In this document: positions 419-53,702 of the stretch, piece by piece
Numbering within the stretch: position 1 is the stretch's first letter
How the letters are laid out: each line of letters begins with the position of its first letter
Origin: a virus
Taxonomy: Duplodnaviria > Caudoviricetes
Virus record (IMG/VR): IMGVR_UViG_3300037067_006336
Coordinates: 32,001 to 96,000 of that record
Length of the DNA stretch: 64,000 nucleotides
Strand: one strand, 5' to 3'
Notes under the pieces: generated by a model
Database searches by the model: none
What the model saw: the letters and a program-made list of their open reading frames with translations, nothing else
What the model was told of the DNA's origin: nothing
Program-made: the position numbers and the translations under genes

Positions 419-1957
419 TTAATGGGAACTTGTAGTTATCCCCCTTCGTTTCTTCTCGTCATCTATTTTCTTCTGCATGTTAAGGTACACGTCGGCGGCC
501 GCATCCTTGAAAATCTTGCGTTCACCTATCAACCTCTTCTCGATACGAACGTACAATGTTTCCTTGCTAACATCGTATATTCTACCTGTGGGTGTCAACG
601 CACAACCTTGACTCCTGTATTCTTCCCACTTCTTCTTATCATTGTTAGTAAGAGGGAAACCATCATGGTTAACCTGAATTGAGTCAACCTTACCGTCAGG
701 GCTGAGCCCCCCTGTTATGATACCGTTGGGGTACAGGGAATTCATGTCAACACCTATCGCGGAACCTGTTTCCTTCTTGGTGGGGTCTTTCACGTAACCC
801 CCCGGGTAAGGACGGTACTGGTTCCCGGTGTGTTCCGAGTCAAGCAACACGGTGTTCTCCATCATTAGCTGGTTGTAAACCAGTGCCTCGGATATCGCGT
901 TCTGTGTTACCATCTCGTACGCCATCGTGTTATAGTAAGACTGGAACAAGTCAACGTTAAGTAGTGATGTTTTCTTGTGAAGTAACATGACGAGGATAGT
1001 GTCTGTAAGTGCATACGCGATGTACCTCAGGTAATCGGAGTTGTATAATGTCCTCAAGTTGCCCTGGTACGATACCTTGTGCAAACCTAGTACTTCCTCT
1101 GCAACACCGTCAAGAGAGTAGTTACCCAGGCTAGAGTAAACCTGTGAACCCTTGAACAACATCATGTAATCACTGAAAATCCTGTGAGATGGTATCTTGT
1201 ATTCTATGCTGGTATTATCATTTATGTCTACCTTCTTATCCTGTAGTCTTTGCCTTGGTGATGCCTTGGCGAATGACAACCCTATCCTTGCCATCCTGTT
1301 ACACAGGTAACGCACGTCGTAATCGTATATGTTCCACCCTATATTCGTGTGGAAGTACTTGTTTACGTTCTCGCAGAATGATGATAACAGTTCGTATTCC
1401 GTCTCGAAGAACTTTACCTCGTAATTGTACTCGTGTTTCTCGTAGTAATCGCCGAGCTGTTCACGTAATATGTTGTTGATGTAACCCCTGTCAATATCAT
1501 TGATGCCGTTCAAGGTGTTGTACTTCGGGTGGTTCATGGTGAACACAACGGAATTCAATTCCTGGTCGGTAACCGTTATGGTGGTTACCGGGTTGAAAGC
1601 ATCTTCTTGAGATGAGTAACCGTGTTCATCAGTGGGGAGTACCTCGATATCAAATGATAACGGGTTAGGGAAATTCAATTTCTTTATTGCAAGATCAAGG
1701 GCAGCATCGTAATTCTTCAGGTCACGGTCAATGAAGTAATTCATGTTGTGATTCTTGAAGTAATGTGCTTTCTCCTTCATCACGTTACTACCCTTGAATG
1801 ATTTCAAACCGGGGATGACCAGGGGATGATACTCGTCACATTCAACCAGACGGTAAAAATCATCACCTATATTAACGTTTCCTACTTCGATCTGCCCTTC
1901 ATCGTTGATGAACGATATATCAATATTATCTCTTTTCTGGGAGTAATAAACTATCAT
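419..1957 (-). CDS. Family B DNA polymerase, N-terminal subunit (3'-5' exonuclease + motif A); split polymerase
   Basis: ExoI SFDIEV, ExoII GWNIYDYDVRYL, ExoIII YALTD, YPGGYV and motif A DMNSLYP are present. The protein ends after the first fingers helix (ERKIFK), with no KxxxNSxYG or YGDTDS. Confidence 0.9.
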   Translation of the reverse strand: MIVYYSQKRDNIDISFINDEGQIEVGNVNIGDDFYRLVECDEYHPLVIPGLKSFKGSNVMKEKAHYFKNHNMNYFIDRDLKNYDAALDLAIKKLNFPNPLSFDIEVLPTDEHGYSSQEDAFNPVTTITVTDQELNSVVFTMNHPKYNTLNGINDIDRGYINNILREQLGDYYEKHEYNYEVKFFETEYELLSSFCENVNKYFHTNIGWNIYDYDVRYLCNRMARIGLSFAKASPRQRLQDKKVDINDNTSIEYKIPSHRIFSDYMMLFKGSQVYSSLGNYSLDGVAEEVLGLHKVSYQGNLRTLYNSDYLRYIAYALTDTILVMLLHKKTSLLNVDLFQSYYNTMAYEMVTQNAISEALVYNQLMMENTVLLDSEHTGNQYRPYPGGYVKDPTKKETGSAIGVDMNSLYPNGIITGGLSPDGKVDSIQVNHDGFPLTNNDKKKWEEYRSQGCALTPTGRIYDVSKETLYVRIEKRLIGERKIFKDAAADVYLNMQKKIDDEKKRRGITTSSH

Positions 1958-3195: not shown

Positions 3196-3239
3196 GATTT
3201 ATCCTTTCTTGTTCGTGTTCCATATTTACCCAGGGTAAT

Positions 3240-3279
3240 AAAAAGGAGGGGAGTTACCGGAAACGGTAACTCCCCTCCC
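3240..3279 (-). terminator. intrinsic terminator
   Basis: On the - strand, GGAGGGGAGTTACCG-TTTC-CGGTAACTCCCCTCC followed by TTTTT, directly after the stop at 3300. Confidence 0.85.
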
Positions 3280-3299
3280 CCAAATATCCTGTAAACATG

Positions 3300-4820
3300 T
3301 TACAGTATGTTCATGATGTCTTGTATCGCGCCTGCTTTAGACAGGTCGTTACCACCGATATTTTGTTGTATGCCGGCTGGGACTTGTTGCAACACCTGGG
3401 GGGCAACTTTCTGCATTGACGTTTGAACGGCGAACTGCATTGGTATTTCCTGTGATAGTTGTTGCACCACGTTCTGTTTAACTGCTTCCACTTGAGCGGG
3501 GGTAAGGTTCAACATGGCTAACCCGGTATCGAGTGCTTCCTTGACGTTCTCACCTGCCTCGATAGAAGCCATGATCTCGGAGGTTAACTCGTTTAACGTG
3601 ATTCCTCTCGATTGTAACGTTTTAGCCGTTACCTTTCCAGAATAAAGTGAAAGACCAGCTTTCAATTCCTTCAACTTAGCGTTATTATGTGATATCATTG
3701 ACTGGATCGAGCGTTTCTTGGCGGGATCATAAGAACCGCTGGCAAGCAATTCCATGTATTTCACGTTTGATTTGACAAGTTCAGAGATGCGTGTCTCGAT
3801 CTCTGCTTTCCTCGTTACCATAACGTCTTCTGGGGTGGCGTAAGGTTTCAAGATGTAATCACTGATCACTGGATCACCCACCTTGGCTAGTAATGATGTG
3901 GCGAGTTCGATGTCACCATCGTTGTACATGTCTGCTGCCGTAGCAACGACTTTCTTCAGGTTAGGTGGCAAGGCGGCAATCTTGGCTTTCGCGTCAGAAT
4001 TCACGTTACCAAGGTCAGACTCGTACTTCTCCATGGCGGCTATAACATCATCGATGTTACCTGCTCCTGTCAACCCGAACTGTTTACCCAGGTTGGCTAT
4101 CTGGCGGATTTCAGCCTCGGTATTGAATTTCGATTGCTGTAACCCGGCACGTTTCTGCTCGATGCTCGCTATCTGGGCATTTGCCGCAGATATCAACTTG
4201 GCTTTTTTAGCTTTCAACTCGGCCTTGATCTTCTCTGGCGTGCGTTTGTCCTCTTTAGCTTTGTTTAGTTTCTCTTTCTTGGCTGCCGTCATCAATGCAC
4301 CCGTGCGGACTGCTGACTCACCTGTACACATCAGGATGAACATAGCCCCGGGTATGGCGTAACGTTTCGATGCTGCTTTCTCGAACGTTGTCACGATGGA
4401 TTGTCCGGAAATAACATTAGTTACTGTTTCATCTAACGTGTCCCCGAAATTGTTAACGTCCTTGTCAGGCATCACCACAAGAGCCACGATTGAATCGTCA
4501 TTGTTGAACGATGCCTTGTCAGCATCGTTCAACCCGCCGACGAACTCCTCGATCTTCTCTGCACCATCGTTGAACAAGTACCCGTATGACTTGAAACCTA
4601 TGAGCTTGAAGTTGGGTGCTTTCTTGGCACCGGCAGCACCCTTGCTTGCAGATTTCAACAAGTAAACGTGGTTCATCACCTTGGCGATGACATCCGGTCG
4701 TTTCAAGATAGTCTGCAACACGGTTGCATCAAGACCGTGACTGCCGAGAATAGCCCTCGGGTTTTCCTTTACCTGTTCCAGGGTGTTAGCCAGGAACTCC
4801 TCTTTAGTTATTTTTCCCAT
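3300..4820 (-). CDS. hypothetical Ala/Lys-rich coiled-coil protein (~506 aa), probably highly expressed
   Basis: Likely start is ATG 4820 (MGKITKEE) after an A-rich leader. The gene has its own promoter box, structured leader and terminator. Confidence 0.75.
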   Translation of the reverse strand: MGKITKEEFLANTLEQVKENPRAILGSHGLDATVLQTILKRPDVIAKVMNHVYLLKSASKGAAGAKKAPNFKLIGFKSYGYLFNDGAEKIEEFVGGLNDADKASFNNDDSIVALVVMPDKDVNNFGDTLDETVTNVISGQSIVTTFEKAASKRYAIPGAMFILMCTGESAVRTGALMTAAKKEKLNKAKEDKRTPEKIKAELKAKKAKLISAANAQIASIEQKRAGLQQSKFNTEAEIRQIANLGKQFGLTGAGNIDDVIAAMEKYESDLGNVNSDAKAKIAALPPNLKKVVATAADMYNDGDIELATSLLAKVGDPVISDYILKPYATPEDVMVTRKAEIETRISELVKSNVKYMELLASGSYDPAKKRSIQSMISHNNAKLKELKAGLSLYSGKVTAKTLQSRGITLNELTSEIMASIEAGENVKEALDTGLAMLNLTPAQVEAVKQNVVQQLSQEIPMQFAVQTSMQKVAPQVLQQVPAGIQQNIGGNDLSKAGAIQDIMNIL

Positions 4821-4845
4821 TGTTAGTAAAATTAAATTGTTGATT

Positions 4846-4976
4846 AACCAAACCCCGGTTCCCGTGGCGTTGGCGCTTTTCACCGATCTCTCGGCTCGTT
4901 CCCAAGGTTACTAGCGTGTCGCGACCAACACCACCAACCCGCGGGAACCGTACACGCGGCCCGTTCCAACCGGTTA
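4846..4976 (-). ncRNA. candidate structured cis-regulatory RNA (5' leader)
   Basis: GC-rich intergenic segment. Nested stems GGUUCCCG/CGGGAACC and UGGUGUUGGUCGC/GCGCCAACGCCA, a CCGA-GAGA-UCGG GNRA hairpin, and alternative pairings. Confidence 0.55.
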
Positions 4977-4991
4977 TTTTAAACTTGAATA

Positions 4992-4997
4992 TATTTA
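4992..4997 (-). promoter_or_regulatory. late-promoter-like TAAATA box
   Basis: GTAAATA on the - strand just upstream of the structured leader. The same box occurs at 3223, 8097, 9516, 10543, 14060, 25694, 30283 (-) and 43079, 48157, 50911, 52111, 52483, 55338 (+). Confidence 0.6.
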
Positions 4998-5009
4998 CGG
5001 TGTTACCGT

Positions 5010-7712
5010 TTACCTTATACTGTTCCCGTTACCGTCGGCTACCATGACCTTCAACCTTCCTGCAAGCTTGCTGTTTATGGCTTGCAACTGCTCAACAAGA
5101 GATGTGAATTCCCCTTGTTGCGGGGCTTGTGCAGGCGTATTATTGGCTATTTTAGCAGGTGACGTACCGCTTGATAAAACGGGGGTGTAAGATGTTTCAC
5201 CCTGCTTTCCCTCCTCCTTCTCGATAGCCTTCGTGTTACCGTTCATAGCGTCGATCAACTGGCGTAACTTGTCTATCAACTCCTGCAAGTTTTTGTTGCT
5301 TTCCTTGTCCGCCATTAGTTTTAACGACCTCTCGAGTGCCATCATCTTGTTCAGGTCTATGGTGTTAACAGCCCCAGCTACCATCCTCATGTTGGTGGCC
5401 ATCAAGGTCATGTTGGCATGTATTATCGCCCACCTTCCTGGGTCAGCCATCTTGTCAAGGAACGAACCTATACCATCACCCGCCTGGGTCTGGGAGAAGT
5501 TAACCCTTGATAGTTTCTCCAGCACTGATGCAACAGGTAACAGCAAGGCAGCCTTGGCAGCCACCTTCGTGAGTTGTACGAAACCTAGTGAATCTATACC
5601 CTCTATCACTTTCGTTATCGATGTAACAAGGTTGTTAGCCCCGGCAGGGTCATACTTCATGGTGCTTATCTTGTTAACGGATGTTGCCACCCCTTGTATT
5701 ATCTTCATCACGACCCATGTCAGTGTTGCCCCGGGTATGGCCAGTACGGCTATGGGTAACATGGTTGCCATGGTGGGTATCAACAACCACAGGCACGGTA
5801 TCAAACCACCTGTATCATAAGGACCCATTGCTGTTATACCTGCCATGATACCTGCCACGGCTAGTGTCAATAACATTGTTGATAGTATCAGTGCGGATGC
5901 GACAAGTGCTAATACCGCCGGTGCAGCCAGGAGAGCGAGTGTCACGAACGTGATCGACAATGCCCCGAGGAACGTCATCAAGTTACCCATGTTTATCTCT
6001 AATCCTGATATCATCGAGAATGCCTTTGATACCAGTATCAATCCTAAACCGGTTAACACGAGAGCCCCTGATATCATGAGCAGTGTCATCGCTCCTATTT
6101 TTGCCATCGCCGCTATTGGTGGTGCTCCTAGAACAGTGGCTATCAATGCCATACCCACTATGACTGCCCCAAGCATGGCTAGGTCACCCCACGTGATACC
6201 AGCCTTCTTGAACAACCACAACGCTCCGACCATCACGATCATAGACACGGATAACTTTATAAGGTCGTTACCTATCTTCCCGCTACCACCTACCTTCGAC
6301 GCGAACGTCATCACCAGTACTACCCCGGCTATGAATGCTAGCATCTTGAAGACAGAATCCCACGGGATGTATGCCATTGCCAGCATGGCTAGGGTTAGTA
6401 TGCCTATACCGAGGGCGAAACCTGGTAACCCCTTGGTAGCCCCTGATCCACCCCCGAACTTGTCGAGTAGTATCATCATCCCGGCTACAGCACCCATGAA
6501 AACGACCATCTTGAAGACGGTTTCCCACTGGATGTATGCCATCGCTAGCATCGCGAGCGTGAGTATGCCTATACCGAGGGCAAAACCTGGTAAACCTTTC
6601 GTCATCCCCTTGCCACCGGTGAATTTATCGAGTAGTATCATTATACCGGCCACTGCAGCCATGAACACCACCATCTTCATGACGGATTCCCATTGAACCA
6701 CGTTCATGACAACCAGCGCCAGGGTTAGTATACCTATACCACCGGCAAATGAAACCATGCCTTTCGGGAGGTCGTTCTTTTTCTTCCCTGCCAGGAACAT
6801 GTACATCATCCCGAGGAACACACCCATTTTCAACAGTGATCCCCACTCCACGAAGGACATTGCTACCAGTGATAAGGTGAGTATACCTATGCCACCAGCG
6901 AATTCAAGCATATTGTCAGGTAATGTTTTCTTGTCCAGTACTTTAGCCATACCCCATGTGAATCCTACCACTAGTGCCAGTGATAACGCTAGCGTGGGGA
7001 TCATGGCAGCTAACCCCATCACGACAAGTGCGCCAGCAAGCATGAGCATGCTGATGGATATAGACCTCATGGGTTTATCGATCTTCTCGATGTTCTTGAC
7101 GAGTGAATCCATTGCGGTGGTGAACGGTTTTACTTTCTTCTCGTCTATCTCCAGTAACTTGTGAAGTACCCTGGTTAATGTTTCTATCTTCCTGAAGAAG
7201 GGTTTCTTCAATTTAGAATCAAGATCCATCACTGCCTTGGATATACCGAGTATATCGAGTACCTTCATCTTGTCCTTACCACCGGAATCACCTTTGGCAG
7301 CACCTTCTTTCCCTGACTTATCGAACATACCGGCGTTAACCTTTATATCGATAAGTTTCGGTATGTCTAACCCTATCTTATCATTGCCTTTTTTATTCTC
7401 CATTATACCCATCATCCTGGCATCGTTCTCGTACTGGTGTGAGAACCATGATGCCAGTATGGTTGAAATCCTGTCTAGTGTCACCTGTGACTTGGACTTC
7501 GCAACTATCAATGAATTGAAACCAGCCGTTATGATGGTTGTCATGGGCTTGGCTAGTATGTCTGATTCCTTCCTGGCGTAGTACTTCAAAGAGTTGAGTA
7601 TCTTGTTTCCAGCATCAGTACCGGCCGCTATGTTGGCAAGCATGACTTCAACTGGAGCTAGACCCATCTCGATCTGCGTGGATGGCGAGTTCTTTTCCCT
7701 GGTTTGCTTCAT
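5010..7712 (-). CDS. tail tape measure protein
   Basis: 900 aa, helical, with ~55-aa hydrophobic repeats (FALGIGILTLAM..W..V.KM); lies downstream of tube and gp26-like genes. Confidence 0.75.
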   Translation of the reverse strand: MKQTREKNSPSTQIEMGLAPVEVMLANIAAGTDAGNKILNSLKYYARKESDILAKPMTTIITAGFNSLIVAKSKSQVTLDRISTILASWFSHQYENDARMMGIMENKKGNDKIGLDIPKLIDIKVNAGMFDKSGKEGAAKGDSGGKDKMKVLDILGISKAVMDLDSKLKKPFFRKIETLTRVLHKLLEIDEKKVKPFTTAMDSLVKNIEKIDKPMRSISISMLMLAGALVVMGLAAMIPTLALSLALVVGFTWGMAKVLDKKTLPDNMLEFAGGIGILTLSLVAMSFVEWGSLLKMGVFLGMMYMFLAGKKKNDLPKGMVSFAGGIGILTLALVVMNVVQWESVMKMVVFMAAVAGIMILLDKFTGGKGMTKGLPGFALGIGILTLAMLAMAYIQWETVFKMVVFMGAVAGMMILLDKFGGGSGATKGLPGFALGIGILTLAMLAMAYIPWDSVFKMLAFIAGVVLVMTFASKVGGSGKIGNDLIKLSVSMIVMVGALWLFKKAGITWGDLAMLGAVIVGMALIATVLGAPPIAAMAKIGAMTLLMISGALVLTGLGLILVSKAFSMISGLEINMGNLMTFLGALSITFVTLALLAAPAVLALVASALILSTMLLTLAVAGIMAGITAMGPYDTGGLIPCLWLLIPTMATMLPIAVLAIPGATLTWVVMKIIQGVATSVNKISTMKYDPAGANNLVTSITKVIEGIDSLGFVQLTKVAAKAALLLPVASVLEKLSRVNFSQTQAGDGIGSFLDKMADPGRWAIIHANMTLMATNMRMVAGAVNTIDLNKMMALERSLKLMADKESNKNLQELIDKLRQLIDAMNGNTKAIEKEEGKQGETSYTPVLSSGTSPAKIANNTPAQAPQQGEFTSLVEQLQAINSKLAGRLKVMVADGNGNSIR

Positions 7713-30687: not shown

Positions 30688-30719
30688 GATGTCTTGAATA
30701 CTGTGTTTTACATGTTGTC

Positions 30720-31670
30720 TTGATTAACATGATATCATATATGTTTGATTGATCATGATGTACTTGGTGAATATATGTTTGATATCACATGTATGCTTAT
30801 ATATTCATGATGTATATTATGTGTTTATCATGATCGATGTATTGTGTATGTTAAATGTATCATGAAGTACTTGATATGTTGGTATGTATATGTTTGATAT
30901 CACATGTATGCTTATATGTTCATGATGTATATTATGTGTTTATCGATGTATTGTGTATGTTAAATGTATCATGAAGTACTTGATATGTTGGTATGTATAT
31001 GTTTGATATCACATGTATGCTTATATGTTCATGATGTACTTGATATGTATATTATCCCATGTTCGATGTAATATGTATGTTGAATGTATCATGATGTACT
31101 TGATAGTAGGTTTACAATGATCAATGTAATGTATGTTGAATGTATCATGAGGTAATTGGATATATGTTTATCATGTTATGAATATCATATGTATTTGATA
31201 GATCATGTTGTATAGTGTATGTTTGATATGATCGATGTAATGTGTATGTTGGTCGGATCATGATGTACGCAATGTGTGTTTGATGTATCATGTCATGCTT
31301 GATATGTATATGTTCGATATCACATGTGTACTTGTATGTTCATGATGTATGGTGTATATGTTTATCATGATACAAATAACATATGTATGCTTATCGATTC
31401 ATGATGTACTTGATATGTATATGTTGACAGATCATGATGTAATAAAAGTTATATGCTAATAGGTTAATGATGTACATGGTGAGTGATATTTTATTACATC
31501 ATGGTATACTTGTTATGTATATACTGTACATGATACCATAAGTGTATATGTTCGATACAATGTCTATGTTGAATGTATCATGATGTACTTGATAATAGGT
31601 TTATCATGTTGTATGTTCATGATGTACTTGAAATGTATATGATCGAATGTTTAATGATATACTTATTCGT
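30720..31670. repeat. non-coding degenerate repeat array (TCATGATGTA units); candidate origin or protein-binding array
   Basis: About 14 copies of TCATGA(T/A/G)GTA. An exact 97-bp duplication at 30833-30929 / 30942-31038 (period 109). Strong T/G skew on the + strand; no ORF of 60 aa or more. Confidence 0.9.
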
Positions 31671-31673
31671 ATG

Positions 31674-52134: not shown

Positions 52135-52428
52135 ATGGTAAGGGCATTGATGAATATACTTGGTTACGTCAGGGTCACCAGTATAATAGGGGGTAAAACA
52201 TTACTATTGTACTCCCCAGACACCAGGATTAAAATGAAGGCTAATAACCGTGTAGGTCGTATAGCATCAGTTGTTATCGAGAACACTGCCGATTCACCCG
52301 TGGTAAGGTACCAGGTGGAATACTGGGATGAAGGAACTAATAATTTCGTTAACAACACTGTTTACGAGTGCGAGATGATAGTGTTGGATAATAAGGTATC
52401 ATCATCAAGGAAAATAGGTTTCCAGTAA
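52135..52428 (+). CDS. hypothetical protein
   Basis: 97 aa, C-terminal RKIGF; TAAATA box upstream. Confidence 0.6.
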   Translation: MVRALMNILGYVRVTSIIGGKTLLLYSPDTRIKMKANNRVGRIASVVIENTADSPVVRYQVEYWDEGTNNFVNNTVYECEMIVLDNKVSSSRKIGFQ

Positions 52429-52538: not shown

Positions 52539-53702
52539 ATGAGTTCTAAAGATTTGTTAAAGCAGTCCTTGTTAACGTCACAAGTTGTTGACGATGGCAA
52601 GAAAATCGCCGTGAAAGCGGATGACATCCAACAAGGTTCAAGTATCGACTGGGACAAGATTTACTTCGAGCCACAGCCAGGTAACACGTACCTTGTCAAG
52701 TTGCTCCCGGTAGCGGAGGCAGAGTTACCCACGACTACTAACATAGAGAACAGGCGTTCTTACAAGAAATTACCCGATCCAGAAAGAAGGGGTAAGAACT
52801 TGATGTACATCTCATCCAACGTTAGTAACACTTGTGCAGCACTTGAGACGTTCTTTAGCTTGAACGACCTGAAGAAATCAGGGGATGTTCTAGCGGAGAA
52901 GAAAATCAAGACATACATGAGTAGTTCTACGGAAAATTGCGTCAAGATTCAAGTACTTGATTCTCCTAAACGCGAGGAAATAGGCATCATCCGGTTAATG
53001 AAATTCCAGGCTGGTGGACAGAATGCAACCTTTACAAACATGATCGACGCGAAGTTAAACCCTAGCGAGGCCAAGAAGAAAAATGGTGATATTAGAGAGG
53101 ACTTGTTCAATATCTTCGGTTCATCAATCCTTTGTATCGAGTGCAAGAAGGCAGTTATCGACGGTGAGGAGGTACGGGATTTCACGGCATCATCATGGCT
53201 TGATAAGGCTAACCAGGTAAAGGGTGCAATAGGTATCACCAAGGACGGTAAAACACACCAGTTCAGTACTGCTGACCTCGTTAAAGGTGAATTGAAACCA
53301 GAGGTTATGCCATTCTTCGAGGCATTCTTCGAACAGTTGACCGACCCTGCTATCAGCATGTTCCGGTTCTTCTGTTACAAACCTATTGATCATCCTTCAA
53401 ACGATGAGGAAACCGTGAAATACCTCACGAAGAATCACGAGAAAGTTGCAAGGGTATGCAAGATCATACTTGATGCCAAAAATATCGAGGAAATCGCAAC
53501 ATCTTGCAAGTCTGACGCTAGCCCTGATGCTAGAAGCGAGAAGCAAGTCAAGAACGAGTCAGGTAAGAACGTGATTACCGACAATGTCCCAGACGAGTTG
53601 AAAGGATCTATCGTGGACAGTACCACTAATACCAAGGAAACATCCAAGAAAGATGATTCAGTTGCAGGTTCAGACCCGGCAGCCGATATCCTGAATTCTT
53701 AA
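52539..53702 (+). CDS. single-stranded DNA-binding protein (gp32-like)
   Basis: IYFEP..GNTYLVKLLP, C...ETFF, IQVLD.P, G.IRLMKF, EDLFNIFG, DFTASSW; flexible tail; terminator downstream. Confidence 0.7.
   Translation: MSSKDLLKQSLLTSQVVDDGKKIAVKADDIQQGSSIDWDKIYFEPQPGNTYLVKLLPVAEAELPTTTNIENRRSYKKLPDPERRGKNLMYISSNVSNTCAALETFFSLNDLKKSGDVLAEKKIKTYMSSSTENCVKIQVLDSPKREEIGIIRLMKFQAGGQNATFTNMIDAKLNPSEAKKKNGDIREDLFNIFGSSILCIECKKAVIDGEEVRDFTASSWLDKANQVKGAIGITKDGKTHQFSTADLVKGELKPEVMPFFEAFFEQLTDPAISMFRFFCYKPIDHPSNDEETVKYLTKNHEKVARVCKIILDAKNIEEIATSCKSDASPDARSEKQVKNESGKNVITDNVPDELKGSIVDSTTNTKETSKKDDSVAGSDPAADILNS

Follow-up and report, generated by a model that had tools for sequence, protein, structure and literature searches.

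Folded leaders that serve a single gene are a known means for phages to tune the output of late proteins. In the T4-type phages the control of a gene by its own product through the leader is well established, the examples being the pseudoknot of gene 32 and the operators of gp43 and RegA. To our knowledge, very few gene-specific folded leaders have been described for phages of the Bacteroidota, bacteria in which translation starts without a Shine-Dalgarno sequence and in which the rules of its control are poorly known. The autogenous control of gene 32 is summarised in a survey of IMG/VR (PMC10690425), which also reports 8,495 unnamed candidate phage RNAs, many of them upstream of particular genes.

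The element analysed here heads the gene of a 506-aa protein in an uncultured phage. Like the T4-type autogenous operators, it is a folded 5' leader of one phage gene, is situated just before the start codon and is proposed to set the amount of protein. It has no similarity to them in sequence or fold, the element being a three-way junction whereas the operators are pseudoknots or hairpins. The operators are bound by the product of the gene, whereas for the element such binding is only proposed, and the hosts of the element lack initiation based on the Shine-Dalgarno sequence. The dimerisation initiation site of retroviruses, the DIS kissing loop of HIV-1, resembles the element in having a self-complementary word of 6-8 nt at a hairpin tip in a 5' leader, and this word varies among lineages yet stays palindromic. 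The HIV-1 site, however, belongs to a packaged genome that dimerises, whereas the element belongs to a phage mRNA that may dimerise, and four members of the family have a CGCG core only. The hammerhead and the int-alpA motif (RF02996), small RNAs common in phages, likewise have three helices that meet at a junction whose purines are conserved, but the junction strands of the element, GUAC(NN), (U)AA and GAGAA, differ from theirs in length and sequence, and no covariance-model match was obtained. Finally, the GP20-a and GP20-b motifs (RF02991, RF03003) and the candidates of PMC10690425 share with the element that they are candidate cis-regulatory RNAs, were found comparatively, covary and always lie upstream of one phage gene family. 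GP20-a and GP20-b differ from the element in gene family and fold, and the element has no Rfam match.

The element comes from an IMG/VR virus record of 162,117 bp, estimated to be 73% complete. The stretch of 64,000 nucleotides that was analysed, called the window below, comprises bases 32001-96000 of the record. Among its genes are those of a tail sheath protein and a split family-B DNA polymerase, and many others code for large proteins to which no function is assigned. A polymerase gene at window 419-1957 ends after motif A, and a stretch of 986 nt at 30688-31673, with 28% GC, is free of ORFs. The nearest cultured relatives of a 1058-aa protein of PHROG-29329 (28-32% identity) belong to jumbo myoviruses: the Tenacibaculum phages PTm1, PTm5 and pT24, phages of Chryseobacterium, Flavobacterium and Prevotella, and the Sphingomonas phage PAU. 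The genes of the 162-kb phage lack a Shine-Dalgarno sequence, and a host among the Bacteroidota therefore fits.

Table 1. Features of the 506-aa gene and its leader, in window coordinates
Feature	Position	Strand	Remarks
GTAAATA box of the next gene	3223-3229		follows the terminator of the 506-aa gene
Intrinsic terminator closing the gene unit	3240-3280	-	G+C-rich stem of 16-17 bp, 3-nt loop, TTTTT; very strong
506-aa gene	3300-4820	-	monocistronic; N-terminal alpha/beta domain, then long helices
A/U-rich linker to the start codon	4821-4854	-	no Shine-Dalgarno sequence
Whole folded element of this copy	4855-4973	-	three-way junction with extended P1
Core matched end to end by model R3	4867-4963	-	17.1 bits; model positions 1-101 of 101
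Outer P1	4968-4973 with 4855-4860	-
P1, inner 5' strand GCGU	4954-4957	-	pairs with 4873-4876 (GCGC)
Junction J1/2, GUACG	4949-4953	-
P2 arm	4898-4948	-	base GUUCCC/GGGAAC (b/b' of the earlier note) and two more helical segments
Self-complementary word GUCGCGAC, P2 tip	4918-4925	-	same word in L020
P3 hairpin CCGA-GAGA-UCGG	4883-4894	-	stem identical to that of L006; (G)CCGA-GAGA-UCGG(U) in the R3 alignment
Junction J3/1, GAAAA	4877-4881	-	GAGAA in most members; one base off consensus
GTAAATA box, then ATTCAAG	4992-4998	-	resembles T4 late promoters; putative promoter

The features of the locus are collected in Table 1. The gene is a self-contained unit of putative promoter, leader, ORF and terminator, the promoter being recognised by its motif. 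The ATG at 4820 is taken as the true start, since the homologs align from residue 4-6 of the protein that begins there; the GTG at 4883 chosen by the gene caller lies inside the element and is ruled out by the same alignments. An exhaustive search of a representative library found 75 relatives of the 506-aa protein, the best with 37% identity, and there was no family match in Pfam or PHROGs. The AF2 model of the protein has a mean pLDDT of 82. The search for a function in Pfam, PHROGs, a PDB sequence profile, Foldseek (PDB and BFVD) and the ESM Atlas returned coiled-coil noise only, and comparison with the structures of PDB and BFVD revealed no recognisable RNA-binding fold. In a phage GenBank collection neither blastn with 5 kb nor tblastn with the protein gave a match, and among IMG/VR and 5.8 billion protein clusters the only close relative was the protein itself. 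The prokaryote genomes contained no relative of the gene, and hence no clue to a prophage or host came from them.

Homologous loci (L-numbers) were gathered via contig look-ups and locus scans of the relatives of the 506-aa protein. Nearly all of them have a long leader, of 108-538 nt, compared with a median spacer of 38 nt in the genome studied here, and synteny is kept, with a homologous protein of 890-1400 aa usually encoded upstream. The spacers of the homologs are AT-rich like the genomes that contain them, so that at first sight they seem unrelated to the element in the window. The parts of the element nevertheless follow a common order: a TAAATA-type box, often with ATTCAA after it, P1, GUAY, a long P2 arm with a CGCG-centred word at its tip, 2-3 nt (usually AA), the P3 hairpin, GAGAA and the 3' strand of P1. 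The element has a length of about 90-120 nt. Conserved are the helices P1, P2 and P3, the unpaired junction strands GUAC, AA and GAGAA (about 11 unpaired nucleotides), the self-complementary tip of P2 and the distance to the start codon. GUAY stands directly after P1 in 15 of the 16 members. A hairpin is present at the position of P3 in every member, with differing sequences (CCGA-UAAU-UCGG in L006), and from base 5 of the 3' strand of P1 to the AUG the distance is 35-51 nt in all 14 members measured. When the junction strands alone were held open, RNAfold predicted the P2 arm, the 2-3 nt and P3 in 13 of 14 leaders; in L007, L011, L003, L019, L017 and L010 the unconstrained MFE structure is the complete three-way junction.

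The element has been remodelled or lost in some lineages. In the group of L004 and L005 it is absent, and the spacer at L004:3893-4000, of 108 nt and 12% GC, is without the junction. The distant homolog L008 (26% identity) has, at L008:2790-3003, a leader that is larger, branches differently and contains a palindrome of 10 nt.

When all leaders are aligned by plain MAFFT, their middle is misaligned, and the alignment was therefore grown through covariance models. R1, built from four AT-rich seeds, picked up L009, L011 and L006. R2, built from seven sequences, picked up L017, L020 and L018. R3 was built from ten sequences with the window excluded, and its best three non-seed matches were L003, L019 and window 4867-4963 on the minus strand. 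Afterwards R3 also found L021 and L023, each directly upstream of the gene and each adding one more P1 and one more tip word to those of the family; on L024 it gave a wrong-strand noise match only.

The pairing in P1 was examined by a test that needs no alignment, in which the 5 nt before GUAY are paired with the 5 nt after GAGAA. Cognate strands had 4.23 of 5 positions paired and swapped strands 2.22, and none of 100,000 permutations was as high (13 non-redundant leaders). At least eight different sequences of P1 occur in the family. Among the variants are GAUUC/GAAUC, GUUUC/GAAAC, ACUCC/GGAGU, CUAAC/GUUAG, AUAAU/GUUAU, CGAAU/AUUCG and AUGAC/GUCAU, with GCGU/GCGC in the window. The helices had been proposed by the author before any model was built, and the alignments used for the covariation tables were fitted to the models and are biased towards them; with this bias, 90.4% of cells are paired in alignment A8 (10 sequences) against 62.8% in shuffles, and 90.8% in A9, whose 13 sequences include the window, against 57.5%. 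For A9 the covariation score is 0.739 against 0.212, a value that none of 500 shuffles reached; 20 of the 22 pairs changed on both sides, among them every pair of P2. When the partners are slid by 1-3 columns, pairing falls to 36-51%. Neither the permutation test nor the free folding by RNAfold is subject to the bias of model fitting.

About 31 of the 226 paired cells in A9 (about 14%) are G-U pairs. On the other strand these would be A-C mismatches, and the pairing therefore belongs to the RNA of the gene's strand. The element is very probably a real conserved RNA fold. Comparison of the leaders establishes its conservation, the compensatory changes, the specificity for the sense strand and the membership of the window copy.

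As to that membership, window 4867-4963(-) is the best R3 match on both strands of the 64 kb, the next best scoring 13.5 bits, and 20 of the 21 pair cells are filled in its alignment. E is 0.003 on the leader 4821-5009 alone and 1 over the 64 kb. So modest a score is convincing only together with the location: the copy stands between a TAAATA-type box and the 506-aa gene, with its junction within the 35-51 nt from the ATG, and was detected by R3 at the expected place and on the expected strand. In the whole record R3 gave only a noise match of 15.4 bits and missed the element, probably through the search filters. The junction strand J2/3 of the copy is GA(G).

In composition the copy in the window stands apart, with a GC of 0.62 against 0.44 for its genome; the remaining members match the GC of their own genomes. 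No other stretch of 120 nt in the 162,117-bp record, where the mean is 43% (sd 6.7), is as rich in GC as window 4853-4972(-) with its 65%, and the intergenic region 4821-5009 has the highest GC among all long intergenic regions. The element is present in a single copy in the genome, and an exact 21-mer of it found no match in IMG/VR. A mobile GC-rich insert was considered and rejected because of the single genome copy and the homologous AT-rich counterparts. The leader also contains a direct repeat of 21 nt, 76% identical, with a spacing of 65 nt. A frame of 74 codons without stop, at 4804-5028(-), extends across the entire spacer, runs in a different frame into the end of the 900-aa gene and has no ATG; its richness in Arg and Gly stems from the GC content, and it is probably non-coding.

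The T4-type late promoter consists of a box similar to TATAAATA, situated some 6-8 nt before the start, and needs the late sigma factor of the phage. GTAAATA is enriched 12.6-fold upstream of genes in the present genome (16 upstream regions) and usually lies 20-66 nt from the ATG; at the 506-aa gene the distance is about 172 nt, within a spacer (4821-5009) of 189 nt against the genome median of 38 nt. The same box, with ATTCAA or ATCAAG, precedes the element in L002, L009, L012 and L023. From these motifs we infer the start site of the leader and the co-transcription of the element with the gene. The word AGGATAT(G) is likewise enriched upstream of genes, in 17 upstream regions (8.6-8.8-fold), for example ahead of window 52135-52428 and 52539-53702, and may mark another promoter class distinct from GTAAATA.

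The earlier note, made from the sequence of the window alone, had proposed a structured leader, unusually long after its TAAATA box and unusually rich in GC, with a word that occurs twice, before a transcriptionally insulated gene. The length, the GC maximum and the repeat are as given above, the terminator at 3240-3280 together with the gene's own GTAAATA box agrees with insulation, and the structured leader is upheld by a fold that is conserved across the homologs of 3300..4820 and covaries upstream of them. The same note had drawn a switch, in which a segment b had two mutually exclusive partners: b' in a pseudoknot completed by a/a', and b'' in a long nested stem with c/c'. All its segments (a, b, c, a', b', the GAGA hairpin, c' and b'') lie on the minus strand where it had placed them. 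The GNRA hairpin CCGA[GAGA]UCGG proved to be the conserved P3, and b/b' the conserved base of P2, but the a/a' half of the pseudoknot is paired in 56% of cells against 54% in shuffles, 203 of 500 being as high. Similarly, the long stem of c/c' and b/b'' is the RNAfold MFE structure in this copy only, and c/c' is paired in 46% of cells against 44% (156 of 500 as high). The choice of b between two partners is thus real in this sequence but is not conserved in the family, and in place of the switch as drawn the conserved fold is the three-way junction. Neither a/a' nor c/c' is kept in the relatives, so that the competition for b characterises this GC-rich copy, where it accompanies the extended GC-rich P1 of the lineage.

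Enforcing the family-type fold on the window copy gives -50.5 kcal/mol against an MFE of -54.4 kcal/mol (RNAfold), the alternative long stem being better by 3.9 kcal/mol. The MFE of 193 nt of the leader is -62.8 kcal/mol (z -2.06; 4 of 200 shuffles equally stable), and the -54.4 kcal/mol, for 126 nt, corresponds to z -1.84 (10 of 200). The folding energy is therefore unexceptional for the composition, and the case cannot rest on thermodynamics.

The reading that we prefer, with a probability of roughly 0.55 for the whole of it, is that the stretch is a cis-regulatory 5' leader RNA of a late gene. The late mRNA of the 506-aa gene would be monocistronic and would have the stretch as its 5' untranslated leader, folded into the three-way junction of an RNA family that heads the homologous gene in a clade of large uncultured myoviruses of the Bacteroidota type. 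The element would act in cis and post-transcriptionally, on the translation and/or the stability of one message. The likeliest route would be the recognition of the conserved junction by a protein, possibly the gene's own product, and the apical loop might provide a second contact, through loop-loop pairing of two leaders or with a dimeric partner. Peculiar to the copy of this lineage, and outside the mechanism of the family, would then be its extreme GC content, its extended P1 and its competing long stem. The cis-acting reading is suggested by three observations taken together: a scan of 4821-5009 for intrinsic terminators found none between the element and the ATG, the distance from junction to ATG is held at 35-51 nt, and there is one element per genome, always before this gene. 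The long stem of this copy is followed by GGGGUUUGG; the real terminator at 3240-3280 has TTTTT. In the linker, an A/U-rich word of the type UUAACAA(A)UUAAAUU occurs about 15-25 nt before the ATG in the window (4821-4854) and in L002, L017, L021 and L023, and the AT-rich members L002, L011, L012 and L014 have a linker palindrome of 10-14 nt around UGUACA.

The tip of the P2 arm bears on what else the leader might do. A perfect palindrome of 6-8 nt was found in the middle of the arm in 10 of the first 14 members, to which L021 and L023 add two; the tip words are GUCGCGAC, UCGCGA, AACGCGUU, AACCGGUU, CUUGCAAG and GUAGCUAC, and their central four bases (CGCG, CCGG, UGCA or AGCU) are always self-complementary. 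Each of the five different 8-nt palindromes has a P of 0.03-0.10 in a region of 22 nt, those of 6 nt are unremarkable (P about 0.3), and four AT-rich members have only the 4-nt palindrome CGCG at the tip. Pairing within the hairpin cannot explain self-complementary central bases, which points to loop-loop pairing of two RNAs or to a symmetric partner. We hypothesise that the tip is a contact of one of these two kinds. Going beyond the preferred cis-acting reading, one may tentatively suppose, as a distinctly less probable outcome, a self-pairing leader whose kissing P2 tips would make expression of the late gene dependent on transcript concentration, or a junction that is an aptamer or a new small ribozyme. 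In the self-pairing case the unit might be the message or, alternatively, a processed fragment of the leader.

The same palindromes could be read in favour of a small RNA that is made from the TAAATA promoter, stands alone or assembles with itself, and whose kissing P2 tips would yield dimers or multimers acting in trans or as a scaffold. Five unrelated palindromic words at the same structural place, and central bases that in every variant are self-complementary in a manner unexplained by one hairpin, speak for such an RNA. No terminator follows the element, however, its distance to the ATG is constrained (35-51 nt), it always precedes one gene family, on the strand of the gene, and six-nt palindromes are common by chance; we consider this RNA unlikely.

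Quite unlikely, too, is a riboswitch, in which the junction would bind a small molecule and, in the present copy, the long stem of c/c' and b/b'' would be the ligand-free state. The roughly 11 conserved unpaired nucleotides inside a covarying three-way junction are typical of aptamers, and the window copy does have two folds within 3.9 kcal/mol. Yet the alternative pairing is not conserved in the relatives, and the members share neither a terminator nor a platform that masks the start site, the linker being open in both folds. The gene, moreover, is a late phage gene without a metabolic link, and no riboswitch in Rfam matched even at E<=5-10.

At the 5' end of a message, a compact three-way junction whose junction purines are invariant would also suit a self-cleaving ribozyme or a processing signal that trims this end, which we regard as improbable: with a J2/3 of only 2-3 nt the hammerhead core (CUGANGA ... 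GAAA) is absent, no Rfam ribozyme matched, and a conserved context of a cleavage site was not identified. An element of the DNA, either one bound by a dimeric DNA-binding protein, such as an operator or cruciform, or a functionless GC-rich insert that arose by chance, would account for a palindrome central in an inverted repeat just downstream of the promoter and for a folding energy of this copy not above chance, but it is improbable for a structure whose helices change freely in sequence with the pairing kept, which has about 14% of G-U pairs that are legal in sense-strand RNA only, which is kept in phages with no more than 37% identity in the protein, and which occurs once in the genome.

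For the cis-acting leader that we favour, the family offers a compact, covarying and clearly bounded element with natural AT-rich and GC-rich versions for probing, mutation and reporter fusion. The palindromic loop is a direct and cheap handle on RNA-RNA dimerisation in the mRNA of a bacterial virus. The element also marks a widespread late gene without assigned function as tightly controlled, and in this way provides a lead to the function. Should the self-pairing leader, the aptamer or the ribozyme prove true, a new class of functional RNA specific to large Bacteroidota phages would have been found.

Elements of this kind are known, whereas the present family, with its palindromic tip, appears to be new to the literature. 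In Rfam 15 no match reached the gathering score in the window, in accord with the earlier note, which had recognised no known consensus. At E<=10 the only match near the element was a 10.7-bit MS2 hairpin on the other strand, and the elements of 14 related loci gave no match even at E<=5. The leader family thus appears uncatalogued, and it may overlap with the 8,495 unnamed IMG/VR candidates of PMC10690425. ARAGORN found no tRNA or tmRNA in the window, where lowered cut-offs gave sub-threshold calls only. Outside the window, at G000:C1:146550-146928, in a 543-nt spacer between divergent genes, ARAGORN reported a tmRNA-like gene, permuted and with an unusual tag peptide, a call that may be spurious.
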